From assembly GCA_965223575.1 (NCBI GenBank), contig CBDCWZ010000010.1, forward strand, positions 1 through 64,000: 64,000 nt of DNA, in the 5' to 3' direction. The DNA is from Kofleriaceae bacterium. GTDB lineage: Bacteria; Myxococcota_A; Polyangia; Haliangiales; Haliangiaceae. The translations under genes were made by a program, and so were the position numbers. Below the pieces are notes generated by a model that was not told where the DNA came from, did no database searches, and saw only the letters and a program-made list of their open reading frames with translations. Every line of letters begins with the position of its first letter. Position 1 is the stretch's first letter. This document shows positions 3,579-39,161 of this stretch, one piece after another.

Positions 3579-3584
3579 TTTTGC

Positions 3585-3737
3585 GGGTTCGTGGTGAAAC
3601 AGGATCATACCGGGTTCTTACCCCGTGAGTGAACTGCGCGCGGCCGAAGGCCGTGCTCGTTACCGCGGTTGAAAAATTCCAGTTTGTACTGGAATTTGTT
3701 CAACAACGCGGTGAGCGTGCAAATCGTTCCGGACCCA
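3585..3737 (+). tRNA. tRNA-Lys(CUU), split between the variable loop and the T stem by an 81-nt element (3632-3712)
   Basis: Acceptor gggttcg/cggaccc. D arm gtga/tcat. Anticodon loop ttCTTac. T arm gagcg-tgcaaat-cgttc. Confidence 0.6.
3632..3712 (+). repeat. T-loop element copy 5 (81 nt, hybrid: GC-rich P1 plus B-type P3)
   Basis: AACTGCGCGC start. P1 gcgcggcc/ggccgtgc, P2 cgcg/cgcg, P3 gaaaaattccag/ctggaatttgttc. Atypical flanks gagTG|GAgcg. Confidence 0.75.
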
Positions 3738-3749
3738 CTACTCGCGTTT

Positions 3750-3893
3750 GCCCCTGGAAGCATCTGGGCGAGGCTAGCCGGCTGTCTACCGGCCGAGGAG
3801 GGTTAACTAGGATGCTCCGCATCCGTTGACGCCACTGTACAAATCCAGCGAACTGGATTTGTACAGTAAGGCGGACGATTCCCTTCAGGGGCG
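3750..3893 (+). tRNA. tRNA-Asp(GUC), split in the T-loop by a 71-nt element (3805-3875)
   Basis: Acceptor gcccctg/caggggc (perfect). Anticodon arm gccgg-ctGTCta-ccggc. T arm gaggg-TT[insert]CGATT-ccctt. Confidence 0.65.
3805..3875 (+). repeat. T-loop element copy 6 (71 nt, subfamily A)
   Basis: AACTAGG. P1 ggatgc/gcatcc, P2 cgcc/ggcg, P3 tgtacaaatccag/ctggatttgtaca. Flanks gagggTT|CGATTcc. Confidence 0.85.
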
Positions 3894-3933
3894 CTTTGGA
3901 AGCGCAAGCCAACTGGCGATGGCACCCGATTCG

Positions 3934-4027
3934 ACCGGGTTGCTAAACTTTTGCGAAGCAGAGCGGATGTTCGTCCGCGGAGCTGCAACAAGTTTAGACG
4001 CGGTGACGGGTCCGAAGGACCCTAGTC
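3934..4027 (-). repeat. T-loop element copy 7 (94 nt, subfamily C, reverse) in an anticodon loop
   Basis: The reverse complement starts GACTAGGGTCCTTCGGACCCGTCACCGCG and ends ...CAACCCGGT. Element-strand flanks cccgagTT|CGAAtcggg. Confidence 0.75.
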
Positions 4028-4042
4028 AACTCGGGGCAGGTT

Positions 4043-4117
4043 AACTGCGCGCGCCTTCGGCGTGCTCGTTAACGCCGCTGTACAACTCCAGTTGCTGGAT
4101 TTGTACAGCAAGGCGGA
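4043..4117 (+). repeat. T-loop element copy 8 (75 nt, hybrid: GC-rich P1 plus A-type P3)
   Basis: AACTGCGCGC. P1 gcgcgcc/ggcgtgc, P2 cgcc/ggcg, P3 ctgtacaactccag/ctggatttgtacag. Flanks gcaggTT|CAACTcc. Confidence 0.8.
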
Positions 4118-4140
4118 CAACTCCTGTCGCTTCCGCCGAT

Positions 4141-4223
4141 GGAAGGTAATCAGGCTGCGGAGCCTGGCCCGGCTGCTACCCGGTGCGCGCCAACAGCGTC
4201 TGGCTCGACTCCAGTGCCTTCCG
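4141..4223 (+). tRNA. tRNA-Ser(GCU), class II
   Basis: Acceptor ggaaggt/gccttcc. Anticodon loop ctGCTac. Long variable arm. G73. T-loop ctcgact. Confidence 0.7.
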
Positions 4224-4227
4224 CAAT

Positions 4228-4302
4228 GGCCCGGTCGTCTAATGGTCAGGACACGAGGCTTTCAATCTCGGAATCGGAGTTCGATTCTCCGTCGGGTCAC
4301 CA
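4228..4302 (+). tRNA. tRNA-Glu(UUC)
   Basis: Acceptor ggcccgg/tcgggtc. D arm gtct/ggac. Loop ctTTCaa. T arm cggag-ttcgatt-ctccg. Encoded CCA. Confidence 0.85.
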
Positions 4303-4303
4303 C

Positions 4304-4375
4304 GGGCTGATAGTGATAGTGGGAACACGCTGCTTTCGCACGGCAGAAAGCCGGGTTCGAATCCCGGTCGGTCCA
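4304..4375 (+). tRNA. tRNA-Ala(CGC)
   Basis: Acceptor gggctga/tcggtcc with G3:U70. Loop ttCGCac. T arm ccggg-ttcgaat-cccgg. Begins 1 nt after the preceding tRNA. Confidence 0.8.
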
Positions 4376-4391
4376 CTTTAGCTCCTTCAAT

Positions 4392-4467
4392 GGGCACGCA
4401 TGTACCAAGGGGGCGAGCTGGCCTTGCAAGCCGGCTGTGGTCGGTTCGATTCCGACCGTGTCCACCA
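4392..4467 (+). tRNA. tRNA-Ala(UGC), D arm poorly paired
   Basis: Acceptor gggcacg/cgtgtcc with G3:U70. Anticodon arm ctggc-ctTGCaa-gccgg. T arm gtcgg-ttcgatt-ccgac. CCA. Confidence 0.6.
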
Positions 4468-4474
4468 TCCAATA

Positions 4475-4620
4475 CCAGGTGTAAGTCAGCGGCAGACGGC
4501 ATCGTTTGGGACGATGCAGACGGAGGTTAACTAGGATGCTCCGCATCCGTTGACGCCACTGTACAAATCCAGCGAACTGGATTTGTACAGTAAGGCGGAC
4601 GATTCCTCCAGGGGGCACCA
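4475..4620 (+). tRNA. tRNA-Pro(UGG), split in the T-loop by a 71-nt element (4529-4599); acceptor halves non-complementary
   Basis: Anticodon arm catcg-ttTGGga-cgatg. T arm ggagg-TT[insert]CGATT-cctcc (perfect). 5' ccaggtg versus 3' agggggc do not pair. CCA present. Confidence 0.5.
4529..4599 (+). repeat. T-loop element copy 9 (71 nt, subfamily A)
   Basis: Nearly identical to copy 6. Flanks ggaggTT|CGATTcc. Confidence 0.85.
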
Positions 4621-4634
4621 CACGCATCGATCTT

Positions 4635-4708
4635 CCGCCGGTAGTTCAACGGGAGAACTGTCGCCTGATAAGCGGCCAATGGTGGTTCGATTCCACCCTG
4701 GCGGACCA
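4635..4708 (+). tRNA. tRNA-Ile(GAU)
   Basis: Acceptor ccgccgg/ctggcgg. D arm gttc/gaac. Loop ctGATaa. T arm ggtgg-ttcgatt-ccacc. CCA. Confidence 0.85.
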
Positions 4709-4709
4709 T

Positions 4710-4784
4710 GGTGATCGTAGCTCAAAGGTAGAGCACTCGGCTGTGACCCGAGCGGTGGGAGTTCGATTCTCCTCGATCACCCCA
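4710..4784 (+). tRNA. tRNA-His(GUG) with G-1
   Basis: G-1 opposite C73. Acceptor gtgatcg/cgatcac. D arm gctc/gagc. Loop ctGTGac. CCA. Confidence 0.85.
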
Positions 4785-4796
4785 ACTTCCTTTTCA

Positions 4797-4870
4797 GCGG
4801 GCTTGGCGTAACAGCAGCGTATCAGGCTTCCAACCTGAGGGTACGGGTGCAATTCCCGTAGCCCGCACCA
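4797..4870 (+). tRNA. tRNA-Gly(UCC)
   Basis: Acceptor gcgggct/agcccgc. Anticodon arm tcagg-ctTCCaa-cctga. T arm acggg-tgcaatt-cccgt (unusual T-loop). CCA. Confidence 0.75.
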
Positions 4871-4872
4871 AC

Positions 4873-4943
4873 GCCTTCGTAGCACAGGGGCAGTGCACTG
4901 GTTTCGTACTCCAGGGACGTGGGTTCGATTCCCGCCGAAGGCT
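4873..4943 (+). tRNA. tRNA-Thr(CGU)
   Basis: Acceptor gccttcg/cgaaggc. D arm gcac/gtgc. Loop ttCGTac. T arm gtggg-ttcgatt-cccgc. Confidence 0.75.
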
Positions 4944-4947
4944 CCGC

Positions 4948-5018
4948 TTCGGTGTCGTCCAACGGCAGGACAGCGGTCTTTGAAGCCGACGACCGGGGTT
5001 CGAATCCCTGCACCGGAA
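4948..5018 (+). tRNA. tRNA-Gln(UUG)
   Basis: Acceptor ttcggtg/caccgga. D arm gtcc/ggac. Loop ctTTGaa. T arm cgggg-ttcgaat-ccctg. Confidence 0.75.
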
Positions 5019-5022
5019 CTGC

Positions 5023-5096
5023 GCCTCTCGTAGCCATCTGGGAAGGCACCTGCCTTGTAAGCAGGCTAGGCGGTTCGATTCCGACGAGGGGCTCCA
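5023..5096 (+). tRNA. tRNA-Thr(UGU)
   Basis: Acceptor gcctctc/gaggggc. Anticodon arm cctgc-ctTGTaa-gcagg. T arm ggcgg-ttcgatt-ccgac (1 mismatch). CCA. Confidence 0.65.
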
Positions 5097-5101
5097 TCTA
5101 T

Positions 5102-5173
5102 TCCTCCGTGGCTTAACGGTAGAGCACCCGGCTGTTAACCGGGGATGTGCAGGTTCGACTCCTGCCGGGGAGC
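5102..5173 (+). tRNA. tRNA-Asn(GUU)
   Basis: D arm gctt/gagc. Anticodon arm cccgg-ctGTTaa-ccggg. T arm gcagg-ttcgact-cctgc. One C:A mismatch in the acceptor. Confidence 0.7.
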
Positions 5174-5176
5174 TAT

Positions 5177-5329
5177 GTCGCTATCGTCCAGTTGGCGAGG
5201 ACGCCGGTCTCTCAAGCCGGAAACGGCGGGTTAACTAGGATGCTTCGCATCCGTTGACGCCGCTGAACAAATCCAGCGAACTGGATTTGTTCAGCAAGGC
5301 GGGCAAGTCCCCCTCCCCTAGCGACGCCA
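5177..5329 (+). tRNA. tRNA-Glu(CUC), split in the T-loop by a 71-nt element (5233-5303)
   Basis: Acceptor gtcgcta/tagcgac (perfect). D arm gtcc/ggac. Loop ctCTCaa. TT[insert]CAAGT. The 3' T-stem side carries 5 extra nt. CCA. Confidence 0.6.
5233..5303 (+). repeat. T-loop element copy 10 (71 nt, subfamily A)
   Basis: AACTAGG. P1 ggatgc/gcatcc, P2 cgcc/ggcg, P3 ctgaacaaatccag/ctggatttgttcag. Flanks gcgggTT|CAAGTcc. Confidence 0.85.
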
Positions 5330-5340
5330 TGCGATCGTCG

Positions 5341-5416
5341 ACCGCGTTGCTGAACAAATTCAACGAAGTGGAATTTTTCAGCCGCGGTAACGAGCACGCC
5401 GAAGGCGCGCGCAGTT
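5341..5416 (-). repeat. T-loop element copy 11 (76 nt, hybrid, reverse)
   Basis: The reverse complement starts AACTGCGCGCGCCTTCGGCGTGCTCGTTACCGCGG and carries a B-type P3. Element-strand flanks ttgTT|CGacga. Confidence 0.8.
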
Positions 5417-5443
5417 AACAAGAGCTATTGAGGCCAAGGGGTT

Positions 5444-5514
5444 GACTAGGGTCCTTCGGACCCGTCACCGCGGCTGTAATCCTCCAGTAAACTGGATGAT
5501 TACAGCAACGCGGT
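5444..5514 (+). repeat. T-loop element copy 12 (71 nt, B-like variant)
   Basis: GACTAGG start. P1 gggtcc/ggaccc, P2 cgcg/cgcg, P3 ctgtaatcctccag/ctggatgattacag. Flanks aggggTT|CGATTcc. Confidence 0.8.
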
Positions 5515-5535
5515 CGATTCCCACCGTCGGCTCCA
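5515..5535 (+). tRNA. Orphan tRNA 3' fragment (half T-loop, T stem, acceptor, CCA)
   Basis: cgatt-cccac-cgtcggc-t-cca follows copy 12. Only about 25 nt lie upstream between copies 11 and 12, so the 5' two-thirds of the gene are missing. Confidence 0.4.
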
Positions 5536-5543
5536 ATCACTAT

Positions 5544-5615
5544 GCCTCCACCCAAGGATGGGACGCGGCGCTACGAACGCTGTCGATGAAGGTTCGAGTC
5601 CTTCTGGAGGTGCCA
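5544..5615 (+). tRNA. tRNA-Arg(ACG)-like with a compact D arm
   Basis: Acceptor gcctcca/tggaggt. ccca-agga-tggg hairpin directly after the acceptor. Anticodon arm cggcg-ctACGaa-cgctg. T arm gaagg-ttcgagt-ccttc. CCA. Confidence 0.55.
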
Positions 5616-5617
5616 AT

Positions 5618-5687
5618 ACCACCGCACGTGGACTCGTGGCCTGGGGTTCCGAACCTTGGTGAAGCAGTTCGATTCTGCTCGGTGGAC
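5618..5687 (+). tRNA. tRNA-Arg(CCG)-like with a compact D arm
   Basis: Acceptor accaccg/cggtgga (6 of 7 paired). cacg-tggact-cgtg hairpin. Loop ttCCGaa. T arm agcag-ttcgatt-ctgct. Confidence 0.5.
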
Positions 5688-5785
5688 CGGGTTGCTGTAG
5701 TTATGCAAAGCGGAGCGGACGGAAGGTCCGCGAAGTTGCAGAACTACAGGCGCGATAACGGGTCGAGCGTAGCGAAACCCTAGTT
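5686..5785 (-). repeat. T-loop element copy 13 (100 nt, subfamily C, reverse)
   Basis: The reverse complement starts AACTAGGGTTTCGC and ends ...CAGCAACCCGGT. Element-strand flanks aagTT|CCaccg. Abuts the tRNA-Arg(CCG)-like 3' end. Confidence 0.7.
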
Positions 5786-5793
5786 AACTTCAT

Positions 5794-5860
5794 GGGCGAC
5801 GATCTGGGATCAGCTTGGGCTCCAAATCCGAGCAGCGGGGTTCAATTCCTCGGTCGCCTG
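5794..5860 (+). tRNA. tRNA-Trp(CCA)-like with a compact D arm
   Basis: Acceptor gggcgac/gtcgcct. gatc-tgg-gatc hairpin. Anticodon arm ttggg-ctCCAaa-tccga. T arm cgggg-ttcaatt-cctcg. 67 nt. Confidence 0.5.
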
Positions 5861-5870
5861 CAACTCTTGC

Positions 5871-5943
5871 AGTCGCGTAGCCCAACGGAAGAGGCGGCAG
5901 GCTTAGAACCTGTGTGTTGGGGGTTCGAATCCTCCCGCGACTA
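5871..5943 (+). tRNA. tRNA with Leu anticodon UAG but a class-I (5-nt) variable loop
   Basis: Acceptor agtcgcg/cgcgact. Leu-type D arm gcc-caacggaaga-ggc. Anticodon arm gcagg-ctTAGaa-cctgt. T arm ggggg-ttcgaat-cctcc. A73. Confidence 0.6.
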
Positions 5944-5946
5944 CTG

Positions 5947-6091
5947 CGGTACGTAGCCCAATCGGCAGAGGCATCCAGTTTAAGCCCGGACCAGTGAGGG
6001 TTAACTAGGATGCTTCGCATCCGTTGACGCCACTGTACAAATCCAGCGAACTGGATTTGTACAGTAAGGCGGACGACTCCCTCCGTACCGA
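5947..6091 (+). tRNA. tRNA with Leu anticodon UAA, class-I variable loop, split in the T-loop (6003-6073)
   Basis: Acceptor cggtacg/cgtaccg (perfect). D arm gcc-caatcggcaga-ggc. Loop ttTAAgc (1 stem mismatch). T arm gaggg-TT[insert]CGACT-ccctc. A73. Confidence 0.55.
6003..6073 (+). repeat. T-loop element copy 14 (71 nt, subfamily A)
   Basis: Same P1, P2 and P3 as copy 6. Flanks gagggTT|CGACTcc. Confidence 0.85.
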
Positions 6092-6098
6092 CCTTCGA

Positions 6099-6243
6099 GC
6101 CAACGTAGCCCAACTGGCAGAGGCACCGGATTCAAATCGCGGACAGTATCGGTTAACTAGGATGCTCTGCATCCGTTAACGCCGCCGAACAAATCCAGCG
6201 AACTGGATTTGTTCAGCAAGGCGGACGACTCCGATCGTTGGCA
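6099..6243 (+). tRNA. tRNA with Leu anticodon CAA, class-I variable loop, split in the T-loop (6155-6225)
   Basis: Acceptor gccaacg/cgttggc (perfect). D arm gcc-caactggcaga-ggc. Loop ttCAAat (2 stem mismatches). T arm atcgg-TT[insert]CGACT-ccgat (perfect). A73. Confidence 0.5.
6155..6225 (+). repeat. T-loop element copy 15 (71 nt, subfamily A)
   Basis: AACTAGG. P1 ggatgc/gcatcc (loop tct), P2 cgcc/ggcg, P3 gaacaaatccag/ctggatttgttc. Flanks atcggTT|CGACTcc. Confidence 0.85.
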
Positions 6244-6249
6244 CAAAAC

Positions 6250-6408
6250 GCGGACGTGGTGGAACGGGATACACGCAACGTTGAGAGCGTTGTGAGCCAC
6301 GTGCTCAATGCCGGTTAACTCGGGGCCTTTGGACCCGTTCTCGGGGCTGAAAAATTCCACGATGTGGAATTTGTTCACCAACCCGGTCGAATCCGGCCGT
6401 CCGCACCA
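6250..6408 (+). tRNA. tRNA-Leu(GAG), class II, split in the T-loop by a 71-nt element (6317-6387)
   Basis: Acceptor gcggacg/cgtccgc (perfect). Anticodon arm caacg-ttGAGag-cgttg. 17-nt variable arm. T arm gccgg-TT[insert]CGAAT-ccggc (perfect). A73 and CCA. Confidence 0.75.
6317..6387 (+). repeat. T-loop element copy 16 (71 nt, subfamily B)
   Basis: AACTCGG start. P1 ggggcc/ggaccc, P2 cggg/cccg, P3 gaaaaattccac/gtggaatttgttc. Flanks gccggTT|CGAATcc. Confidence 0.85.
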
Positions 6409-6441
6409 TCCAGAAACATCAACCCTCAACGAAAGGCAGCC

Positions 6442-6972
6442 ATGACGGCTCAAACACTGTTGTTGTCCGCGGGCTATGAGCCGATCAAGGTCGTCTCTTG
6501 GCAACGCGCGATAACCTTACTCACGCTCGGCAAGATCGAAGTTCTGGAAGAGTATGATCGCGAAGTTCGATCCCCGACCATTGCGTTTAAGATGCCTGCG
6601 GTCGTTCGACTTTTGCAGGTACTCAAGCGCAACAAGAAGGCAGTCAAGTTCTCGCGCATCAACATCTATGCGCGGGATAAGTACCGGTGCCAATACTGCT
6701 GTCGAAAGCTACCCATCGCCGAGTTGACCTACGACCACGTCGTTCCGCGCGCGAAGGGTGGCAAGACGATTTGGCAGAACATCGTGACCGCATGCGAAAC
6801 GTGCAACAGCCGCAAGGGGAACCGGACGCCGGAGCAAGCGCACATGGCGTTGCTCAACCGGCCAACACGGCCGACTTGGGTCCCGGTCATGACGCTTCGG
6901 GTAAACCGCAACACGGCGCCCGATGCCTGGAGAGACTATCTCTACTGGACCGGTGAACTGCAAAGCGGCTGA
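6442..6972 (+). CDS. HNH endonuclease (McrA/COG1403-like, 176 aa) embedded in the tRNA array
   Basis: Motif YRCQYC...LTYDHVVPRAKGG....N.VTACETCNSRKGNR. ATG at 6442 with gaaagg 8 nt upstream. Starts 34 nt after the CCA of tRNA-Leu(GAG). Confidence 0.8.
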   Translation: MTAQTLLLSAGYEPIKVVSWQRAITLLTLGKIEVLEEYDREVRSPTIAFKMPAVVRLLQVLKRNKKAVKFSRINIYARDKYRCQYCCRKLPIAELTYDHVVPRAKGGKTIWQNIVTACETCNSRKGNRTPEQAHMALLNRPTRPTWVPVMTLRVNRNTAPDAWRDYLYWTGELQSG

Positions 6973-7029
6973 CCGCACACCGAATGCCACGGGCCACAGA
7001 TCGGATCCGCGAGCCCGCCGGCATTCACT

Positions 7030-7117
7030 GGAGAGACAAACCGATTGGCGACGGTGCTCGGCTTGAACCCGAGTGAGCGTAACTGCCTTAGGGGTTCGAC
7101 TCCCCTTCTCTCCGCCA
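7030..7117 (+). tRNA. tRNA-Ser(UGA), class II
   Basis: Acceptor ggagaga/tctctcc. Anticodon arm ctcgg-ctTGAac-ccgag. Long variable arm. T arm agggg-ttcgact-cccct. G73 and CCA. Confidence 0.85.
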
Positions 7118-7118
7118 T

Positions 7119-7203
7119 GGAAGGCATCCGAATGGTGAGGACCCCGGTTGGAAGCCGGGCGGGCGACAACGTTGCCTTGAGGGTTCGAGTCCCTCGCCTT
7201 CCG
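7119..7203 (+). tRNA. tRNA-Ser(GGA), class II
   Basis: Acceptor ggaaggc/gccttcc. Anticodon arm cccgg-ttGGAag-ccggg. Long variable arm. T arm gaggg-ttcgagt-ccctc. G73. Confidence 0.8.
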
Positions 7204-7207
7204 CTGC

Positions 7208-7276
7208 GCCTCGCGGGACGGATCCCAGCTGGGTCTTCTAAACCCGGCGCTCCAGGTTCAATTCCTGGGCGAGGTA
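7208..7276 (+). tRNA. tRNA-Arg(UCU)-like with a compact D arm
   Basis: Acceptor gcctcgc/gcgaggt. ggga-cgga-tccc hairpin directly after the acceptor. Anticodon arm tgggt-ctTCTaa-acccg. T arm ccagg-ttcaatt-cctgg. Confidence 0.55.
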
Positions 7277-7277
7277 C

Positions 7278-7345
7278 GGCTCCTCTGATGGACCAGTCCC
7301 GGCTCTTCTAAAGCTGGAGAGAGCGTTCGATTCGCTCAGGAGCCA
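7278..7345 (+). tRNA. tRNA-Arg(UCU)-like (second copy) with a compact D arm
   Basis: Acceptor ggctcct/aggagcc. ctg-atggac-cag hairpin. Anticodon arm cggct-ctTCTaa-agctg. T arm gagcg-ttcgatt-cgctc. Confidence 0.55.
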
Positions 7346-7538
7346 CTTCGCGCCCCGAACACGCGAAGACTCCTACAGCTTCGCGCGTATTTCGCCACCT
7401 CAACCGTACTGGTCATTGATCCGGGTGGATGTCCGCCCATCGCACGCCGAACTTCGCAAGGTACTTGCGAACACGATCTGAATCGTTGGCGCTCGAGACT
7501 TGGGCGAAATCGATACGTTTCGAAATACGGCGAAATAA

Positions 7539-7580
7539 GGGGTCAGACTGAAGTTATAACTTCAGTCTGACCCCACTTTT
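7539..7580. terminator. Perfect 16-bp hairpin, terminator-like, downstream of the tRNA array
   Basis: ggggtcagactgaagt-tataa-cttcagtctgacccc followed by actttt. Confidence 0.5.
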
Positions 7581-7659
7581 CCCGTCAACCAATTCTCACG
7601 GCTTACTCCAGATTGTTGCCAGCATACGGTTCTCCCGCTATCTCTACTATAATCAATCA

Positions 7660-8850
7660 ATGCTCTGCGTGTTTTGCAATTCTCTGTTGCCTTCGAAGAA
7701 GCCCGAACATGTAGTGAGCGCCTTCCTCGGTGGAAGACGAAGCTCAAGGAATCTGCTCTGTGATCTCCACAATGAAACGTTCGGCGGCTCATTTGAACGC
7801 CACGCGGCCAAAGGACTAGCCTCTCTGGCGAACATGCTTGGTGTCAGGAGCGGTCGCCGGCGAGCACCGCCACAAATTCAGGGCATTAAGGGACCAGACA
7901 AGTCTGAGACTTACACGCTCTTGCCAGGAGCAAAGATCATTCAACCCAAAGCGAAGGTCGAGATCGACGAGTCGGAGAACGGGCAGGTTCGAATACGCAT
8001 CAGAGCTGATGCAACCAAAGGCCATCAGATCCATAAGATTCTGGAGAGTTTCGCAGCCAAGTACGGAACCACGCTAGACGAAACGATTTTAGCCCAAGCC
8101 AACGTTACACAGATTCAACTCCCATCGCCCATTGAACTTGATATCACCCTAGGGCCGGACCTGCTGCGTTCACTCTCAAAAATCTCGTTACTACTTCTCG
8201 CTACCAAGACCGGTACAGTCGCGGTTCGAGGCTCCGCCTTTGAGGATGTTCGCAGGTTCATCGAGATCGGCGGACCAAGCAGTGAGTTCATTCGGATGAA
8301 TTCGGCAGCAAAGCTACCAACCATAGTAGGTCTGCACGAACCAGCAGTAGCCGTGCATCGTTTTTTGGTGTACGCAACTCGCGAATTCGGCTGTTTTGCG
8401 ACAATCGAACTGTATGGATGTTTTCTATTCACAGGCCTTCTTTCCAAGGAGTGGAACTCTGAAAATATTAGCGTTGGCCACTCGGTCAACCCCATCACCG
8501 AGCAACACTTCGTAGCTTATAATTTCAGTTCATCACCAATTTCGATTGACCAATTTGCTACTATCAAAGGCGATCAGGTAGCCACCAATGGCCGGCTGGA
8601 CAATCTGTTGAGCTTCGCAATAAGGCGTATGCAACAGCAAGCTCTTGAAGAAATGGTCGCACGATGTATTAATGAAAGCATTGGTAAGAGCGAGGATGTC
8701 ATTACTGAGGAAATGATCGCCAAATTGACCATGTCCTTTGCCGAGCAGTTCGTTGCTACGCAGAAGGGATACGTTCTAGAGCGACAACTCACCATTGACG
8801 ACGTTATTCCTCGAACTCCGACAGGAGAGCCCGACGGCCCTGATGAGTGA
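7660..8850 (+). CDS. HNH_5-type nuclease-domain protein with an uncharacterised C-terminal region (396 aa)
   Basis: N terminus CVFCNS...KPEHVVSAFLGG...LCDLHN matches the CxxC...EH..P..LGG...C..CN pattern of HNH_5 endonucleases. I do not recognise the rest. Confidence 0.55.
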   Translation: MLCVFCNSLLPSKKPEHVVSAFLGGRRSSRNLLCDLHNETFGGSFERHAAKGLASLANMLGVRSGRRRAPPQIQGIKGPDKSETYTLLPGAKIIQPKAKVEIDESENGQVRIRIRADATKGHQIHKILESFAAKYGTTLDETILAQANVTQIQLPSPIELDITLGPDLLRSLSKISLLLLATKTGTVAVRGSAFEDVRRFIEIGGPSSEFIRMNSAAKLPTIVGLHEPAVAVHRFLVYATREFGCFATIELYGCFLFTGLLSKEWNSENISVGHSVNPITEQHFVAYNFSSSPISIDQFATIKGDQVATNGRLDNLLSFAIRRMQQQALEEMVARCINESIGKSEDVITEEMIAKLTMSFAEQFVATQKGYVLERQLTIDDVIPRTPTGEPDGPDE

Positions 8851-11489: not shown

Positions 11490-11567
<78 letters not shown>

Positions 11568-11929: not shown

Positions 11930-12008
11930 CCACGACTGGTCGTCTGCCCGTTTGCTCAAGTGGACGATGGGCTCCTAGGTCCGCCCACCAGATTTCACCG
12001 CACTTCAT
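11930..12008 (-). pseudogene. MazF/PemK-like toxin, N-terminal fragment only
   Basis: MKCGEIWWADLGAHRPLEQTGRRPVVV, then homology to the full copy at 32299-32562 ends. Confidence 0.6.
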
Positions 12009-12053
12009 CTAGCATCTTCTTCATCTAGCATCTTCTTCATCTAGCATCTTCTT
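12006..12053. repeat. 16-bp tandem repeat x3 (catctagcatcttctt)
   Basis: Three perfect units. The paralogous locus at 32.56 kb has one unit. The unit spans the antitoxin stop and toxin start junction. Confidence 0.85.
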
Positions 12054-12267
12054 CAGCCAGCATCTCGCACCACTCATCTATTCCTTGATCGGCAAGGGCA
12101 AGATCTTCTTCCTCGCCGGTATTAGCGAGCCTATTTAGGTCCCACCGCGCGGGGTCGGGATGACGGAGCACAATCACAGAGACATGCTCGCCTTGGCGAA
12201 GATCTAGACGTTGGCTGGGTTTGAGCACACCGTCACTGTATTCAGCTTCGATCGGCTTCACATTCAA
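12037..12267 (-). CDS. DUF104/AF2212-type antitoxin (76 aa)
   Basis: MNVKPIEAEYSDGVLKP...L..GE.V.V pattern. Paralogue at about 32.56-32.79 kb. Confidence 0.55.
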   Translation of the reverse strand: MNVKPIEAEYSDGVLKPSQRLDLRQGEHVSVIVLRHPDPARWDLNRLANTGEEEDLALADQGIDEWCEMLAEEDAR

Positions 12268-12341
12268 TAGATTAGCACGTTCGGCAACTATGGGCTATCG
12301 CCGTGATTTTAGCCCTAGAAAAAGCAACAAAAGCGAGAATT

Positions 12342-12471
12342 TCAAACAGATCGAGCGGTGTCTTCCCAAGAGGTTCCTTCGTCGGGATCCCGTTCGTACT
12401 CTGCTAGCCGTTCGTCCAATACTTCGCGGTGCGACCGGCTCGTAGAGCTTATCGATCTCGGTGGGACTCAT
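12342..12471 (-). pseudogene. Addiction-module-component-like small gene, frameshifted
   Basis: C-terminal HREVLDERLAEYERDPDEGTSWED is in a different frame from the N-terminal MSPTEIDKLYEPV. Confidence 0.35.
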
Positions 12472-12676
12472 CGCATGTCTCCGCGCAAGTTCGTTGCTCT
12501 CCTGCGCAAAGTTGTGACCTTTGAGCGTTGTCGCCGATCCTCGACGTGCTGGTTTAAACCCCACGAGTCACCGCATATGCACTATCACTTGGCCAGCCGC
12601 TCAACAGCTGCCCCCGAGGCCGCGGTTACTCCGAGTGCAGAAGGCCAGACACTCGGAAAGAATTGTCCTGCGCAGC

Positions 12677-32298: not shown

Positions 32299-32562
32299 CT
32301 AGATCCCTAGCGCTACGCATTGGAGCGCGGATTTGAAACGCCAATGCGACGAGGTTTCAAGACCATCATCTTCGTGGCCGTCAATCACGGCGATTCCGGC
32401 TAGATGGGCACGATCGAGATTCGTCGTAAGCGGCACGACTAGAACCGATTGTAGTGCTCGGATGAGGGCATCACTCTGCCATACCACCACTGGGCGTCTG
32501 CCTGTTTGCTCAAGTGGACGATGGGCACCGAGATCAGCCCACCAGATTTCGCCGCGCTTCAT
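32299..32562 (-). CDS. MazF/PemK-family toxin (full length)
   Basis: MKRGEIWWADLG....EQ.GRRPVVV.QSD....L..V.VVPLTT. Confidence 0.7.
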   Translation of the reverse strand: MKRGEIWWADLGAHRPLEQTGRRPVVVWQSDALIRALQSVLVVPLTTNLDRAHLAGIAVIDGHEDDGLETSSHWRFKSALQCVALGI

Positions 32563-32790
32563 CTAGCATCTTCTTCAGCCAGCATCTCGCACCACTCATC
32601 TATTCCTTGATCAGCAAGGACCATATCCTCTTCCTCACCAATCTTGGCGAGACGATTTAAGTCGCGGGATCGGGACGGCGAAGCACGATCGAAGAGACAC
32701 GCTCTCCATGGCTAAGATCTAGACGTTTGCCGGGCTTGAGCACACCGTCACGGTATTCAGCTTCAATTGGCTTCACAGTCAATAGGTTAC
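32559..32790 (-). pseudogene. DUF104-type antitoxin paralogue, frameshifted
   Basis: VKPIEAEYRDGVLKPGKRLDLSHGERV.., then the C-terminal EDMVLADQGIDEWCEMLAEEDAR in another frame. Confidence 0.5.
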
Positions 32791-32939
32791 CATGTTCCCA
32801 AACTGCGGGCCATCGCCGTGATTTGGCCCTAGAAAAAGCAACAAAAACGAGAGGTTCAAACCGTCTCCGAAAGCGGCGCAGAGCGTGATTTTTCCGGGCT
32901 AGTCCTCGATTGGGCATAGACGGGGAATTCCAACAAACG

Positions 32940-33075
32940 ATTCGCCACACACACTACAACGCTTTACGTTCACACCAATCAAGGTAACGCGAACGCCCTG
33001 GGCATCGTACAGATAGTTTTCTCTTGCAGACTTCAACTGCCCGTCACAATGTATGCACTTCATGTCCATCTCCCC
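32940..33075 (-). pseudogene. MqsA-like antitoxin N-terminal fragment
   Basis: nt similarity to 9620-9746 (MDMKCIHCDGQLKSARENYLYDAQGVRVTLIGVNVKRC..). Confidence 0.55.
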
Positions 33076-33542
33076 AAACTAGCGATGCGTCCGCCATACT
33101 GTGACGATGACAAGCTCGAACTCACTCCAGAAGCAACCACAACGGTGGGCAACACGCCGAATAATAATGCGTGTCATTGCTCAGACGCGTGGTCTGCCGG
33201 TAGCTCTTCCTGAAAATCTTCCCAAGAAGTTCCTTCGTCGGGATCTCGTTCGTACTCTGCTAGCCGTTCGTCTAATACTTTGCGGTGCCAGTTGGGAACT
33301 TCAACTTGCTCTGATTTATGGCCGAAATCCTGCAATTTTTCTCAGTGGACAGGGTGCTCGCCGACGCGCCCGCTTCGCGATGAGGCCCAAGCATTTCCGG
33401 CAAGTCACGGCTCGAAGATCGTCGGTTGCAATACCCTCGACCTCAGCTCGATGGGCAGCCTCGAGATCCCTGGGATTACACAACACCATGTCTTCTGCGT
33501 TGAGAGCATGTAGATCGCACGTTGTTCTCCTGTCGGCCATGT

Positions 33543-34661
33543 TCATGTCCCCTTGTAGACCAGCACTGGTTCCAAACGCCGGACGATGCGTGTAAGCGTT
33601 TTCTGTGCCCGCATTACTTTGTTGATGTTCTTATAGGCCCCGGGAGCCTCGTCTCGCAGACGGCCCGCGATGCGGTGATCGAACCAGATGCCAGTCATCT
33701 GCTCGACCAGTTTATTAATGCTGATTGCTCTTCGAGCCTCGGTTCGGCTGAGGCAGCGACCAGCACCATGAGAGCTTGAACACAAAGACTCGACATCGCC
33801 CCGGCCCTCAACGTGAAAGCTGGCACTACCCATTGATCCGGGGATAATCCCCGGTTCTCGTAAACGGGCTGAGATAGCCCCTTTGCGGTGAACCCACAGC
33901 AGTCGATCTTGGTGTTTCTCCTGTCTAACGAAGTTGTGATGACAGTCAAAGTACGACTCCCACCGTGCAACGCTGCCGGTGACGTCTTCCAACCTGCGTG
34001 CGACGACCTCGGCCATGCGCCGTCGACTCAGCCGCGCATAATCAAGAGCCCACTTGAGATCGTGCAAATAGGCTTGCCCAAGCGACGAATTCGCAGGCAT
34101 CGAGCGTAGACCTCCGTCGGCACCACCATGATGTTCACGGATACCCTGGCCGATCCCACGGGATCCGCTGTGCACCATCAACCACAGCGCGTTCTCGGCA
34201 TCGCGTTGAAATTCGATGAAGTGATTTCCGCGCCCCAGTGTTGCGAACTGCGTCCTAGCGATTTTGGTTTTCTTCTTTTCCAGAGACGACACCGACAGTT
34301 TTCGACTGGCTAGCTCGTCGGGAAGCCTTGCGTTGACTGATCTGTGACTCGACGTAGGCACTTGATTCGCCAGCATCGTGAGCACGCGAGCCGCCATAAT
34401 TCGGTCGTTTAGAAGGTTCGCGTCAGTATCAAATCGCAGCGCCGACATCCCACAACCAATATCGCCTCCCACGGCATCGGGAAAGAGATGGCTGTGCGTT
34501 GCGACGACGGTACCAACGCACACCGCTTTGGCAAGATGTACATCGGGCATCACTGCGACCACAGCGACGTCCTGCAACTCCGCGATCCTATCCAGCGCCC
34601 TGCGAACGTCCGCTGGTAGCGCGTCATGGGTCCACGTTCGGACAGGCATGCGGCTACTCAT
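33543..34661 (-). CDS. rtcB: RtcB RNA 3'-phosphate/5'-OH ligase
   Basis: MPDVHLAK...GGDIGCGM, GRGNHFIE, HSGSRG.G, GSMG..S, SSSHGAGR motifs. ATG at 34661 with GGAGG 8 nt upstream. Confidence 0.85.
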   Translation of the reverse strand: MSSRMPVRTWTHDALPADVRRALDRIAELQDVAVVAVMPDVHLAKAVCVGTVVATHSHLFPDAVGGDIGCGMSALRFDTDANLLNDRIMAARVLTMLANQVPTSSHRSVNARLPDELASRKLSVSSLEKKKTKIARTQFATLGRGNHFIEFQRDAENALWLMVHSGSRGIGQGIREHHGGADGGLRSMPANSSLGQAYLHDLKWALDYARLSRRRMAEVVARRLEDVTGSVARWESYFDCHHNFVRQEKHQDRLLWVHRKGAISARLREPGIIPGSMGSASFHVEGRGDVESLCSSSHGAGRCLSRTEARRAISINKLVEQMTGIWFDHRIAGRLRDEAPGAYKNINKVMRAQKTLTRIVRRLEPVLVYKGT

Positions 34662-35082
34662 TGCCAACCTCCTGTTCCCAATTCCCGTCACTCATCGCCT
34701 TCGCTGGAACAACCGTGAAGCGCAGCATCGGGACGCGCTTACGGTTGATGGCCTTGGCAACTTCGCTGCGAAAATAGCCGGCTGCTCGATCCAATATCTG
34801 ATGCATCCCCTCATAGTCATAGTCTCCTTCTGATGTGACCAGCACCCGCAACTGTGCAGCACCTCCCTGTGGTTCCACGGAGGCGACGTAGACACCCCTA
34901 AGAAATGGATTGGCGGAGCACGCGAGAGCGATCGCAATGGCCTCTTCTACCTGCCTGCAGAGCTGGATTGTTTTGGTATCTACCCTGTGAGGGTCAGAAA
35001 ATACGGATTCTTCTTCGTTACTTGAGCCAACAAGGCCCTCATACGCGCAATCATTTCTGCGCCGTTTCTTGCGTGAAGTCAT
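34654..35082 (-). CDS. RbfA-like (ribosome-binding factor A fold) protein with a basic N-terminal extension
   Basis: R....LCRQVEEAIAIAL......L.GVYV.SVE......L.V.V.....D.......L..A.GYFRSEVAKAI..KRVP.L.F pattern. Its stop overlaps the rtcB start (ATGAGTAG). Confidence 0.5.
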   Translation of the reverse strand: MTSRKKRRRNDCAYEGLVGSSNEEESVFSDPHRVDTKTIQLCRQVEEAIAIALACSANPFLRGVYVASVEPQGGAAQLRVLVTSEGDYDYEGMHQILDRAAGYFRSEVAKAINRKRVPMLRFTVVPAKAMSDGNWEQEVGNE

Positions 35083-36177
35083 GCTTCTCCCATTGCGTGG
35101 CAGGCAGACGCCAGCCACACGTCATCAATCAGACGTTTTCAAACGGGTCTCAAATCCGGCGTCAACCCTCTCAGGGACACCGTGAGAGCTAGAAGACGCG
35201 GGAAGTAAAACCCACGAACGAAAGCATGTTGGCAAGATCGGACATGATGGCCTCCTGTGGTTCTTTTAAGATACCGGCACATCGCCGATTTGGCAAGCAG
35301 ATTCTACTAGTGCGATCAGATCTCGACTGGTCTCGGCAAACAGATGTACCCGTGGCCGGGTCCGATAAGAGCGTTAGCGAGCCGGCAGGCGAAAACCGTA
35401 GCGGTAACCCTGGTCAGAATAGCGTAAGGATTCGACCTGGAATCGAGCTGGAAAGTCAGTTTCCAGCCGTTTTAGAAACTCGGTCAGGCGAGGCCCGTTG
35501 CGGTCAGCGAGGCGGCGATTGTCACCGGGGGGCAATAAACGATTTGGAAATGTCAAAATCACCTTTTTTTAGTCCTAGTTGGGTTAAGTGGAGCTAAAAC
35601 TGGTAGCGTTGATTGAGTTTTTGAGGATGAACAAGTCAAGAACTACATTGAGATCGAGCGTATTCCGTACATACTTGTTAGTCTTATCGCTTGCATGGAT
35701 CTCGTGTGGGCGAGTTGGCTTTGATGCTACGGCAATAGACGATCGTAGCAACCGCGATGCCGGAGACACGAATATTCAAGTCACGGATGGCCTGGTTGCC
35801 CGCTACTTGGTTGCGGGAACGGGACTCACCGACGAATTTGGCGATGGCCCTACCGGAACAAATCCTAGAGCAGGCATCCTTAGGACGACGCACCCATAAG
35901 TTACGAGAAACTTCTTGCGTTTTGCGTCGATTTCGCTAACCTAATTGAATCTCCATTGTCGGGGAGCCAAAGAACATGATTGCTTCGTACTTCATTTAAT
36001 CCCTCCTGCCAAAGCGAACTGTCCAGTTTGATTTAGGCGTCGGCATCACGAGCACAACGTGCTCATTGTTGGTGGCGACATGAGGTTCAGCGGATTCATC
36101 GTTGCAACGCGCGCATGTTTGATCGCAGGTGCGCAAACGCCGAGATGTGTCTGCTGGCGCAGGAGAAGGATAAGCAG

Positions 36178-37551
36178 ATGAAGTTTAAGTCAAAACCGAT
36201 AGAAGAGCATCTCGAAGTACCGCTTCCCGACGATGGTCGTTGGGAGGAAATCGTCGCCCATTGGGCACGACGAGACGGCTCCAGGGCCACAACAAACAAC
36301 GAAAACAATTTGTGCTACGTCGTTGCCGTCGCGCTGCGAGATGAGCTTGAACCACGCGGAAGTCTCGCCGAGCTCATGAGTCTTGTGCGCACCCAGGGTG
36401 ATGCCATCGTAGGTCATGAGACCCACCGCGTAAGCAAGCCCAATCCTCGCTTGCTTGTCGGTGTCGGGACCGCCAAGGATATCGGCCAAAGGGCTACCGA
36501 ATGTGGCGCAGATATGCTCGTGATTGACGCCGAGCTCAGTCCCTCACAAACGCGCAACCTCGAAGACGCGACCGGATTTGCAGTCTGTGATCGTGAGGCG
36601 GTCATCCTCAATGTATTCCAGCGCCATGCAAAAACGCAGAAAGCTCGGATTCAGGTTGAGATTGCACATCTCGAATATCTCCGACCGAGGATCCGTGGCA
36701 TCGGATTGGTGATGGACCAACAAGCAGGTGGAATGGTGAACAGCCGAGGGTCAGGCGAGACCGCCTCCGAGCTCCTGGCCCGGCGGCTCGACGGCCGATT
36801 GGCCGTGCTGCGTAAGGCATTCAGCAAGCTGGCTAAATCTGGAACCGTTCAACGCCAAAAGCGCACGACGTGCAAACGAATCGTCTTGGTCGGGTACACA
36901 AACGCTGGAAAGACCTCACTGATGAACACCATGACCTGTGCTGGGCTGTCCGCAGCCGACCGACCGTTCGAAACATTGGACACTACCTCGCGCTGCTTAA
37001 CGCGGCACGGTGGAGATGTCCTCGTCAGCGACACGGTTGGTTTCATCCGCAATTTGCCTGATCGTCTATTCGCCAGCTTCGAATCGACCCTGTCTGAGAC
37101 ACTAGAGGCATCGCTACTCGCGCTGGTTGTCGATGCTTCTGATCCAGAACGCGAGTTGCATTTGCGAACCAGTGAAGAGCTCCTGGCCCGACTCGGTGCC
37201 GATAAAATCCCTCGGCTGTATGTGTTTAATAAGATCGACCGTCTCAACCTTCAACCTTATCAGGACAGCTTAGATAACCTGAGTCGAGGTCACGAGCACA
37301 TTGCCGTTTGCAGCCACGAGGCTGGAGATGTCGCACGACTCAAGGAGACGCTGTTGCGGCTGGCCCGGCAAGAGCAACAAGTCTGTCGCGTATTCCTCTC
37401 GTACGCATCGACAAAGGCGATTGCCACCGTCTATGCCAAGTGCCGTGTGATCTCGGTAAAGTCAACACAGGACGGGCTTCAGTTCACGATCGCCGGAGAA
37501 CCACACGTCGTTGCCAAGATTCGGTCAGCGAGCGAGGAGATACAACAATGA
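36178..37551 (+). CDS. hflX: HflX GTPase
   Basis: LSPSQTRNLE, VILNVFQRHAKT..A..QVE.A.L.Y..PR, GYTNAGKTSLMN, DTVGFI..LP..L...F..TL. Confidence 0.85.
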   Translation: MKFKSKPIEEHLEVPLPDDGRWEEIVAHWARRDGSRATTNNENNLCYVVAVALRDELEPRGSLAELMSLVRTQGDAIVGHETHRVSKPNPRLLVGVGTAKDIGQRATECGADMLVIDAELSPSQTRNLEDATGFAVCDREAVILNVFQRHAKTQKARIQVEIAHLEYLRPRIRGIGLVMDQQAGGMVNSRGSGETASELLARRLDGRLAVLRKAFSKLAKSGTVQRQKRTTCKRIVLVGYTNAGKTSLMNTMTCAGLSAADRPFETLDTTSRCLTRHGGDVLVSDTVGFIRNLPDRLFASFESTLSETLEASLLALVVDASDPERELHLRTSEELLARLGADKIPRLYVFNKIDRLNLQPYQDSLDNLSRGHEHIAVCSHEAGDVARLKETLLRLARQEQQVCRVFLSYASTKAIATVYAKCRVISVKSTQDGLQFTIAGEPHVVAKIRSASEEIQQ

Positions 37552-39161
37552 AAGTCACAAACCGAAAAGACTCCGGGCAATTGCTACTGCAAGCCAGACG
37601 ACTGGACATCCATGCGCCCGGTGGAAGACCTCTGTTTCGCGACTTGAACATCAACCTGGAGAGAGAACGTGTTGCTCTAATCGGTCGAAACGGCGCGGGC
37701 AAGTCGTCGCTCCTCGAAGTTCTTTCCAAACAAGCGAATCCACGTGCCGGTGAGGTTGTCGTGAATGTCGATTCCGTTCTCGTTGGGCAGCACCTAGATC
37801 CGGTGTGGATCTCAGAGATGGTGCGTAGCCGTTGGGGCGGATGCACTGAAGTTTGGGCGGATGAAGTATCCGGTGAACTTGCAGAAGCAGGCCTACCACT
37901 ATTGCCTCCGCTGTCCGAGATTCCGCGTTGGAGCCGAGGAGAGATGAGAAAGGTCTGCCTTGTGACGGCCAAGACTGCTAGGCCCGAGTTGCTGTTTCTG
38001 GACGAGCCCTCACAAGATCTGGATGACGCTGGTCTCAACTGGCTGACAACGTGGCTGGCCGATTTTCGCAGCGGCCTGATGCTCGTTTCTCATGACAGAA
38101 GACTTCTGCGATACTTTTCCCACTTCTTCATCGTGGCCGAGTCGGGCTGCGATTACTTTCGCGGGTCCCTGGCCAATCTTGAGCGAGAACTGGTGCGGCG
38201 AAGTACGGATGAGCAAGCGCGCTATGTCCGCAACCTCAACGTTCTTATGGAGCGCGAACAACACAATGAGAGAGTGAACAGTCGACGTCGCCGCAAAAAG
38301 AATCTTGGCCGCATCCATGAGATTCGGCGTGCTCCGTCGCGAGCGAAACTCAACGAAAACCGCGGCTACGCCCAAGAGAGTCAAGGCAAGCGCAGTCGCA
38401 TACGCAAACAGCGAATCGGAGCGGTACGAACCTGGGCCAAGGCAACGCGGCGGGCGCTCGCGGTGACGCTACCGTTACAGGCCGTGATGCCACGCTTACC
38501 GGATAGTGATAGCCGTGACAATATCGTACTTGAGGGAGTGAGTGCGACGGTAGGTGGGCGCAGGCTGTTTGCGGCACTCGACTTGCGCATTCGGCGCCAT
38601 CGAGTTGCGGTGATGGGAGCCAATGGGGTCGGGAAAACAACCTTGCTAAGGATGATGTTGGGACACACCGCTCCGAATGCTGGAGCAGTCAAGCTCCGCT
38701 CGCAACAGATCGGCTCGATCGCCCAGGGAGCGACAGACTGGATGTTGGAGGAGAGTCTGTTGTCGTGTCTGCTGAAATGCGGACAAGAGAATTCTCCAGA
38801 GACCCTGGCTCAACTCCTTGTTGGCCACAGGTTTCCGCTTGCCCTCGCCGAACGCTCACTTCGTTCTCTAAGTCCGGGCGAGCGACTTCGCGCAGCGCTG
38901 ATATGTTTGTTCCAACGTTTCCCACCGATCGAGCTCCTCGTGCTAGACGAACCAACCTACAGTCTTGATTTTAGTGGAGCCGTCGCACTGCGTGCGGTTC
39001 TCAGCGAATGGCGGGGGGGTCTGGTCGTTGCCACCCACGATTACGACTTCGTAGCGTCTATTGGGATCGAAAAACGAATCTGGTTCGACGGAAATGGGAG
39101 CCACGAGATTTCTACTTTGACTGCGGCGGAATCGTGTCCCAACCTCGCCGACCACGCATAA
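37548..39161 (+). CDS. ABC-F family ATPase (two ABC domains, Arg/Lys-rich interdomain linker, no TMD)
   Basis: Walker A GRNGAGKSS and GANGVGKTT. Signatures WSRGEMRK and LSPGERLR. Walker B LLFLDEP and LLVLDEP. The ATG overlaps the hflX stop (ATGA 37548-37551). Confidence 0.75.
   Translation: MKVTNRKDSGQLLLQARRLDIHAPGGRPLFRDLNINLERERVALIGRNGAGKSSLLEVLSKQANPRAGEVVVNVDSVLVGQHLDPVWISEMVRSRWGGCTEVWADEVSGELAEAGLPLLPPLSEIPRWSRGEMRKVCLVTAKTARPELLFLDEPSQDLDDAGLNWLTTWLADFRSGLMLVSHDRRLLRYFSHFFIVAESGCDYFRGSLANLERELVRRSTDEQARYVRNLNVLMEREQHNERVNSRRRRKKNLGRIHEIRRAPSRAKLNENRGYAQESQGKRSRIRKQRIGAVRTWAKATRRALAVTLPLQAVMPRLPDSDSRDNIVLEGVSATVGGRRLFAALDLRIRRHRVAVMGANGVGKTTLLRMMLGHTAPNAGAVKLRSQQIGSIAQGATDWMLEESLLSCLLKCGQENSPETLAQLLVGHRFPLALAERSLRSLSPGERLRAALICLFQRFPPIELLVLDEPTYSLDFSGAVALRAVLSEWRGGLVVATHDYDFVASIGIEKRIWFDGNGSHEISTLTAAESCPNLADHA

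Follow-up and report, generated by a model that had tools for sequence, protein, structure and literature searches.

Why should the gene of an RNA ligase be joined to that of a ribosome-binding factor? The question is raised by positions 33,543 to 35,082 of a 64,000-nucleotide (nt) stretch of DNA from a Kofleriaceae bacterium (GenBank assembly GCA_965223575.1, contig CBDCWZ010000010.1, positions 1 to 64,000), hereafter the window, where rtcB follows directly on a small RbfA-like gene. RtcB seals RNA breaks that carry 2',3'-cyclic-phosphate and 5'-OH ends. A sequence-only reading of this DNA had suggested that the RbfA-like protein could deliver RtcB to damaged 30S subunits, by analogy with the PrfH-RtcB2 pair, and had made this depend in advance on an RbfA (KH-like) fold of the small protein and on a conserved linkage of its gene to rtcB in other genomes.

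Coupling and conservation of the gene pair

The two genes lie on the minus strand, with the following elements in and around their junction (coordinates are those of the window).

34654..35082, minus strand: RbfA-like gene, a 142-amino-acid (aa) open reading frame (ORF) with the N-terminus MTSRKKRRRND, read from the sequence
35087..35091, minus strand: GGGAG, the Shine-Dalgarno (SD) sequence of the RbfA-like gene, 4 nt 5' of its ATG
33543..34661, minus strand: rtcB, 372 aa, with its ATG at 34661..34659 and its stop at 33545..33543
34668..34672, minus strand: GGAGG, the SD sequence of rtcB, within the 3' end of the RbfA-like gene and separated from the rtcB ATG by a 6-nt spacer (TTGGCA)
34654..34661, minus strand: ATGAGTAG, the 8-nt overlap that holds the rtcB ATG and the RbfA-like TAG (34656..34654)
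33316..33546, minus strand: a small Cys-containing ORF of 76 aa, its ATG sharing bases with the rtcB stop (ATGA)

The start of the RbfA-like gene was placed at the ATG at 35082 and not at the GTG at 35118 because its relatives begin M-S/T-S-R-K-K. Every residue of the RbfA pattern quoted in the sequence-only reading is found in the 142-aa ORF, and the position that it gave for the junction, with the RbfA-like TAG inside the ATGAGTAG that also holds the rtcB ATG (34661), agrees with ours. The GGAGG that it saw ahead of rtcB is present as well; the spacing to the ATG is 6 nt, not the 8 nt that it reported. Such a layout is that of translational coupling, by which the RbfA-like protein and RtcB would be made together. 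The nusA-infB-rbfA-truB context is absent around the RbfA-like gene in the window.

Conservation of the pair was assessed from both sides. On the RbfA-like side, 185,579 species genomes, one per species, were scanned with patterns, and the linked count is a lower bound. The rtcB gene lies directly 3' of the RbfA-like gene in 10 of the 16 genome loci (two of the ten look degraded), and these ten come from Kofleriaceae, Vicinamibacteria and other Acidobacteriota, Phycisphaeraceae and other Planctomycetota, and metagenome-assembled genomes (MAGs) labelled Gammaproteobacteria or proteobacterium. The genes also adjoin, with a 4-nt overlap, in the cultured myxobacterium Polyangium jinanense, and the pair recurs in the contig groups L001-L004, L005, L024, L025, L032, L115 and L116. 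The RtcB side was sampled independently by a metagenome scan with an RtcB alignment, which yielded no fewer than 563 relatives; of these the 80 best, at 46-71% identity, were kept, and 69 of the 80 loci have upstream DNA enough to judge. A same-strand RbfA-like ORF ends a few bases from the rtcB start at 68 of the 69, and at 7 of the 11 loci with short upstream DNA the C-terminal end of an RbfA-like ORF is still visible. The sole exception on this side, L111, has repeat-rich upstream DNA (3300..4000) in which the translated units GGWPRSS and WVAPVI recur.

The junction itself is kept: in 72 of 75 loci rtcB has an available start codon that overlaps the 3' terminus of the gene before it, and the curated RbfA-like/rtcB junctions read ATGAGTAG, ATGAGTGA, GTGGCTGA or ATGA. 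Pairwise identities among the RbfA-like proteins correlate with those among the RtcBs (r=0.91, 81 pairs), which argues that the two are inherited as a unit. The RbfA-like family is kept in at least 82 linked loci, and a search for a third conserved gene by clustering of flanking ORFs, in 23 and then in 95 loci, returned only the pair and antisense shadow ORFs. A dedicated RbfA-like/RtcB pair is well supported by these data, and the linkage on which the sequence-only reading had staked its proposal holds from either side of the pair, stop/start overlap included. Neither protein matches a known defence system in PADLOC, and PLSDB contains no plasmid-borne copy of the pair.

Some members depart from this pattern in rtcB. 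The L001 contig holds only the first 45 RtcB residues, and in L002 and L003 the rtcB ORF stops after 69 codons. The gene is truncated or split by a frameshift, with the RbfA-like gene intact, at L002 (2339..2548), L003 (2364..2573), L011 (6231..6833), L022 (10206..11344) and L025 (5562..6688), which may come from an error of assembly or from a ligase in decay. The 76-aa ORF that overlaps the rtcB stop in the window has homologues of 52-61 aa, 57-73% identical, located 3-6 nt 3' of rtcB in L007, L116 and L009; it is absent from most related loci and has no Pfam match. It is a possible third gene in part of the RtcB clade, and its product may be a small zinc-binding third component.

Family, fold and active site of the two proteins

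The window RbfA-like protein matches the Pfam family RBFA (PF02033) with E=5.1e-8 and 33.6 bits, 1.1 bits short of the gathering score of 34.7, while its relative from L014 passes with 35.2 bits and most relatives carry a precomputed PF02033 match. An exhaustive HMMER search returned 1,050 clusters (50% identity) of RbfA-like kind at E<=1e-3, and 97 at E<=1e-10. The NCBIfam rbfA equivalogs TIGR00082 and NF001802 are both failed by the window protein (20.2 against 51.15 bits and 17.4 against 142 bits, respectively), and the Polyangium and Fimbriiglobus relatives likewise fall below the rbfA equivalog cut-offs. In an AlphaFold2 model built on eight homologues, core residues 36-125 have a predicted local distance difference test score (pLDDT) >90 and follow the order a1-b1-b2-a2-kink-a3-b3, which is that of the RbfA/type-II KH fold. 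Residues 1-35 form a disordered N-terminal extension, first basic and then acidic, and a long C-terminal tail is lacking. A Foldseek search of the PDB placed RbfA structures at all of ranks 1-15, with a TM-score normalised to the target (TMt) of up to 0.82, a root mean square deviation of 2.0-2.5 Å and about 25% identity; the top matches are 1jos, 7afq_V and 2dyj, and both free and 30S- or mitoribosome-bound forms of RbfA were recovered. PDB RbfA chains are also retrieved by the sequence profile of the RbfA-like protein. The modelled core and its fold matches thus give the KH-like fold that the sequence-only reading had presupposed, and indicate a small protein that is RbfA-like in fold, yet not the housekeeping equivalog.

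At the residue level, A100, G102, Y103 and R105 of the window protein align with A75, G77, F78 and R80 of E. coli RbfA, which make up the AxG kink, the aromatic and the Arg and which hold 16S nt 1531-1535 (PMC8177701). The AxG kink and the aromatic (A100-A-G102-Y103) are invariant within the window's clade. Family-wide, the invariant positions are K37, Q40, C42, Q44, V45, R105, V108, A109, I112, R114, K115 and P118, and the subfamily is marked by the signature QLCxQV ... RxEVAxxIxRKRxP.

Members of the same RbfA subfamily occur without rtcB in Fimbriiglobus (five MAGs), in a Planctomycetaceae group and in one further lineage, all in ordinary chromosomal contexts, and these stand-alone members may serve those planctomycetes as housekeeping RbfA. 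The window is probably myxobacterial, the best named matches of its glutamate synthase small subunit being Kofleriaceae and Haliangium (62-72% identity). Myxobacteria have a canonical rbfA of ordinary type; within the 64-kb window there is no second RbfA-family ORF. We infer that the RbfA-like gene is an extra rbfA copy because of its sporadic distribution across phyla (at 50-57% identity), the failure of the equivalog models and its constant partner. The sporadic spread of linked loci over unrelated phyla, at 50-70% identity, also fits an accessory, horizontally moved module.

The ligase is recognised by the Pfam RtcB family (PF01139) with 276 bits, against a cut-off of 27. Its motifs DIGCG, GNHF, HSGSRG, HHN and SSSHGAGR line up with the residues of P. 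horikoshii RtcB that make up its metal, GTP and nucleophile motifs, and counterparts are present for all of the P. horikoshii reference residues of the metal/His-nucleophile test (C98, H203, H234, H329 and H404). The catalytic motifs are invariant in 13 clade members, and the active site of the window RtcB is intact. The RbfA-linked RtcBs are 45-77% identical among themselves, 35-39% identical to E. coli RtcB1 and 27-32% identical to the PrfH-linked RtcB2 of E. coli W. Membership of the RtcB2 family was considered and rejected on that 27-32% identity and on both NCBIfam models: the window RtcB fails TIGR03073 (158 against 271.8 bits) and NF007153 (198 against 407 bits), on which the E. coli RtcB2 control scores 617 and 642 bits. 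No release-factor-like gene (prfH) stands beside rtcB in the window or at any related locus. Given the higher identity within the clade and the failure of the RtcB2 models, the RbfA-linked RtcBs form a separate clade of short RtcBs outside the RtcB2 family.

The leader ORF

Upstream of the RbfA-like gene the window carries a short upstream ORF (uORF) and a structured leader.

35251..35256, minus strand: AGGAGG, the SD sequence of the uORF, read from the sequence; its CAGGAGGC block is conserved in relatives
35189..35245, minus strand: uORF of 18 codons plus stop, encoding the peptide MSDLANMLSFVGFTSRVF, about 110 nt upstream of the RbfA-like start
35083..35188, minus strand: structured 5' leader that separates the uORF from the RbfA-like gene, from fold, consensus and shuffles
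35083..35262, minus strand: uORF and structured leader together

Homologous uORF peptides, for example MFDLANMLPFVGLNARVS and MLDLANMLPFVGFVSRVS, occur at the same position in the window's clade at L005, L025, L035, L036, L001 and L009. The commonest type elsewhere, MSPIA(H/R)xPMxxSLLAAA, is encoded by 29 distinct nucleotide sequences; among these, codons 3 and 5 differ at the third position alone and codon 2 mostly there, a pattern of variation that argues for selection on the peptide. The uORF of Polyangium encodes MRPIATMSLAPTSP. Across linked loci, SD-led uORFs of 9-22 codons were found in 63 of 78 upstream regions, compared with 4 of 78 reverse-complement and 7 of 78 shuffled controls. 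To our knowledge, these leader peptides (beginning MSDLANMLPFVGF, or of the form MSPIAHxPMxxSLLAAA) match no known leader. Conservation of the leader ORF suggests that the operon may be controlled by translation.

The window leader folds with a minimum free energy (MFE) of -73.6 kcal/mol (z=-3.83), and none of 200 shuffles was as good. In both the single fold and a six-relative RNAalifold consensus, a long-range helix pairs uORF nt 35212..35229 with the SD sequence and AUG of the RbfA-like gene (35080..35100). The helix columns have 92% of their cells paired, against 38-49% in slid controls, and pairing between the uORF and the ribosome-binding site is present in the MFE structure of 32 of 64 leaders. 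A covariance model of the leader finds window-type loci only, and no Rfam family matches the leader, even at E up to 1.

A similar uORF precedes at least one stand-alone RbfA-like gene (L033). At the Fimbriiglobus loci L013, L014, L017 and L018, moreover, the RbfA-like ORF is readable from an upstream SD-led start, MRPIHF..., that resembles the uORF peptides of other clades, and it looks as if leader and gene have there been fused in frame. Together, the uORF at L033 and the apparent Fimbriiglobus fusion argue that the leader belongs to the RbfA-like gene and not to RtcB.

A possible role in ribosome repair

Work on other systems suggests what such a pair might do. RtcB2 repairs 30S subunits cut at A1493/G1494 with the aid of the ribosome factor PrfH (PMC9304027, PMC13166195). 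E. coli RtcB binds ribosomes weakly and re-ligates the 43-nt 16S 3' fragment removed by MazF, and the 16S 3' fragment that this enzyme, RtcB1, can re-attach holds the RbfA-binding nucleotides (PMC5416887). RbfA itself acts late in 30S assembly and fixes the 3' end of 16S rRNA: it sits in the mRNA exit channel, where its KH surface holds 16S G1530-A1536 and the h44 linkers are left disordered (PMC8177701).

On this basis we propose a mechanism in which translation of the short leader ORF would set the exposure of the RbfA-like ribosome-binding site. The prediction for the window's clade is that this site pairs with the leader ORF, so that ribosomes pausing or stalling on the leader ORF would raise expression. 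The RbfA-like protein would then bind the 30S subunit at the place in the mRNA exit channel that RbfA occupies, holding the 16S 3' end with the decoding-helix linkers loose. A cut 16S 3' fragment would thereby stay tethered and accessible, and RtcB could reseal the 2',3'-cyclic-phosphate/5'-OH break in the 3' minor domain; such breaks are the work of nucleases of the colicin-E3, CdiA and MazF types. That the locus is a stress-induced module of this kind, an RbfA paralogue guiding RtcB under control of the leader to 16S rRNA broken within the 30S subunit, has in our judgement about an even chance of being right. We infer, for our part, that the RbfA-like protein binds the 30S subunit, that cut 16S rRNA is the substrate, that the two proteins touch each other and that stalling induces the operon.

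A close parallel is RtcB2-PrfH of E. coli ATCC 25922 and W (PMC9304027, PMC9223846, PMC13166195), and the analogy drawn by the sequence-only reading seems a reasonable one. Both systems consist of two coupled genes for a short RtcB (about 370-380 aa) and a small protein derived from a ribosome factor, both are sporadically distributed, and the target proposed here would likewise be a break in the 16S 3' minor domain of the 30S subunit. Unlike PrfH, the partner has an RbfA/KH fold and is not a release-factor homologue; without a GGQ domain it could not release peptides. Here the partner gene precedes that of the ligase, the opposite of the order in E. coli W, where rtcB2 leads, and a conserved leader ORF precedes the RbfA-like/rtcB operon. 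Compared with canonical RbfA (PF02033, TIGR00082), the small protein has the same a1-b1-b2-a2-kink-a3-b3 fold and, in the window clade, retains the AxG, the aromatic and the Arg; it carries the 35-residue N-terminal extension in place of the flexible C-terminal tail, and its gene is coupled to rtcB, follows a leader ORF and lies outside the nusA-infB-rbfA context. With RtcB1 and the RtcB-RtcA-RtcR operon of E. coli (PMC5416887) the ligase shares its chemistry, RtcB1 being the nearer of the two E. coli paralogues. The RbfA-linked enzyme is, however, about 36 residues shorter, and its control apparently lies in a leader ORF and not in RtcR; neither rtcA nor the sigma-54 activator gene rtcR was found among the examined neighbours of the pair or among conserved neighbours. 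The leader itself recalls the leader-peptide translational attenuators. These are known from ermC, from cat/cmlA and from ABC-F resistance genes. As in the ermC type, a short SD-led ORF lies about 100 nt upstream and has, in the window clade, a predicted pairing with the ribosome-binding site downstream, but the pairing covaries weakly here and is not seen in all clades.

Several observations weigh against ribosome repair as proposed. In the uORF/ribosome-binding-site helix, 4 pairs are changed on both sides, which is weak covariation, and the consensus of the Acidobacteria-type leaders does not recover the helix, giving two small hairpins only; for this last reason we treat it as a lead. Among the 82 RtcB-linked proteins the A of the AxG kink is kept in 33% and the G in 45%, and Arg is the most frequent residue at the aromatic position (46%), so that the kink and the aromatic persist in 33-46% of these proteins. 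The contact with RNA may thus differ from that of canonical RbfA, or RNA binding in the KH cleft may not be the conserved function, and the conserved a1/a3 face may serve another partner. The family-wide invariant residues are also present in stand-alone relatives without RtcB, and a comparison of these with RtcB-linked proteins found no RtcB-specific signature in the RbfA-like core.

In another reading the RbfA-like protein is a cofactor of RtcB and no ribosome adaptor, either a functional analogue of Archease or a generic subunit that holds RNA, activating the ligase or steering it to non-ribosomal RNA such as cleaved tRNA or mRNA. RtcB-Archease pairs are known from archaea, some bacteria and metazoa. 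They resemble the present pair in that a protein of about 140 aa is encoded beside RtcB and presumably acts together with it, but the fold is unrelated, and the model of the small protein matches RbfA and not Archease. Obligate pairing and coupled translation would suit an enzyme and its cofactor, the flanking-ORF clustering shows neither Archease nor another partner conserved nearby, and helices a1 and a3, strongly conserved where most linked members have lost the AxG and the aromatic, could mark a protein-protein surface. Against this, the identical a1/a3 residues are conserved in stand-alone relatives without RtcB, the entire RbfA fold is retained with its basic residues, and all solved RbfA structures from the fold search are ribosome factors, many of them complexed with small-subunit particles. 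We consider a cofactor role unlikely. The two proteins could also have no more than their regulation in common, the RbfA paralogue reactivating or holding idle or immature 30S subunits and RtcB independently repairing tRNAs or mRNAs after translational stress. A leader that precedes stand-alone L033 and seems fused to the Fimbriiglobus genes would then be a regulatory element tied to the RbfA-like gene, and translational stress does induce rtcB in other bacteria (PMC8421152). Linkage at 68 of 69 loci, a kept stop/start overlap and a dedicated RtcB clade whose divergence keeps pace with that of its partner nevertheless exceed what co-regulation usually leaves, and other stress genes are not conserved in the operon, so that shared regulation by itself seems to us quite unlikely.

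A role of the pair in normal 16S maturation or quality control, with RtcB joining processing intermediates and RbfA holding the 3' end, would have a counterpart in archaea, where RtcB circularises pre-rRNA. It would accord with the late assembly function of RbfA at the 16S 3' end (PMC8177701) and with the Planctomycetota members, which stand alone in ordinary chromosomal contexts and may be the housekeeping factor. A sporadic pair, with at least ten linked loci among the 185,579 species genomes and those in unrelated phyla, does not look like a maturation factor, and control by a leader ORF suggests conditional and not constitutive expression; we judge this role improbable. Least of all do we believe in ordinary gene order, that is, a housekeeping rbfA lying by chance beside an unrelated rtcB. 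In its favour are the lack of a second RbfA-family ORF in the 64-kb window and a Pfam placement in RBFA. It is contradicted by the linkage, which holds across phyla at 68 of 69 loci while the flanks vary, by rbfA equivalog cut-offs that are widely missed and by the missing nusA-infB-rbfA-truB context, and we give it a very slim chance.

The neighbourhood of the pair varies among relatives. Two features of the window bear on an idea of the sequence-only reading, that RtcB could rejoin tRNA halves if T-loop elements were excised at the RNA level.

2985..7277, plus strand: tRNA array, 16 tRNA genes in about 4.3 kb, from ARAGORN and for most also from Rfam
11490..11564, minus strand: tRNA-Gly, from ARAGORN

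That idea found no support: the 17 tRNAs of the window are ordinary and uninterrupted, their distance from rtcB is at least 22 kb, and in none of the related loci is the pair linked to tRNA genes. In cyanobacteria, long tRNA arrays are co-regulated with rtcB (PMC8421152). Divergently upstream of the pair (36115..39161, plus strand) lies an HflX GTPase gene whose stop overlaps the start of a gene for a two-cassette ABC ATPase, which is ABC-F-like and has no membrane-domain match. Both belong to ribosome-associated families, but we rejected them as part of the module since this neighbourhood is not conserved in relatives; their position may be coincidence. Just downstream of rtcB, on the minus strand, comes a series of small genes of toxin-antitoxin type: at 32299..32562 one for a PemK/MazF-like toxin, at 32657..32950 one for an AF2212-like protein and at 33174..33335 one for an Unstab_antitox antitoxin. 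To find an RNase of the MazF type beside RtcB is suggestive, though it is not conserved in related loci. In Polyangium jinanense (L023) a Tpt1/KptA RNA 2'-phosphotransferase gene (11973..12575, minus strand) lies 2.5 kb downstream of the pair, and at L025 an AAA_33 kinase-like gene and a gene for a Thg1-like 3'-5' polymerase follow immediately (7209..8586, plus strand).

A full-text literature search found no relevant paper that joins RtcB with RbfA or 'ribosome-binding factor'; an earlier mention is possible in a broad 2016 survey of RNA-repair neighbourhoods. Repair of rRNA has been shown recently, and for one module, RtcB2-PrfH. E. coli K-12 carries a defective rtcB2-prfH of its own. We tentatively suggest, at somewhat less than even confidence, that the RbfA-like/RtcB pair is a second system for ribosome repair, independent of PrfH and widespread among bacteria of soil and sediment, in which a leader peptide senses impaired translation and turns on an RbfA paralogue, the paralogue clamps the severed 16S 3' end on the 30S subunit, and the decoding-centre or anti-Shine-Dalgarno region is resealed by an RtcB that has co-evolved with it. 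If this is true, it would provide a concrete, testable substrate hypothesis for a large RtcB clade, with at least 563 relatives in JGI metagenomes, that is found in Acidobacteriota, Myxococcota, Planctomycetota and others and in a cultured Polyangium. An assembly factor, RbfA, would then have been recruited for repair, and the conserved leader peptide would be a candidate for a new sensor of translational damage.

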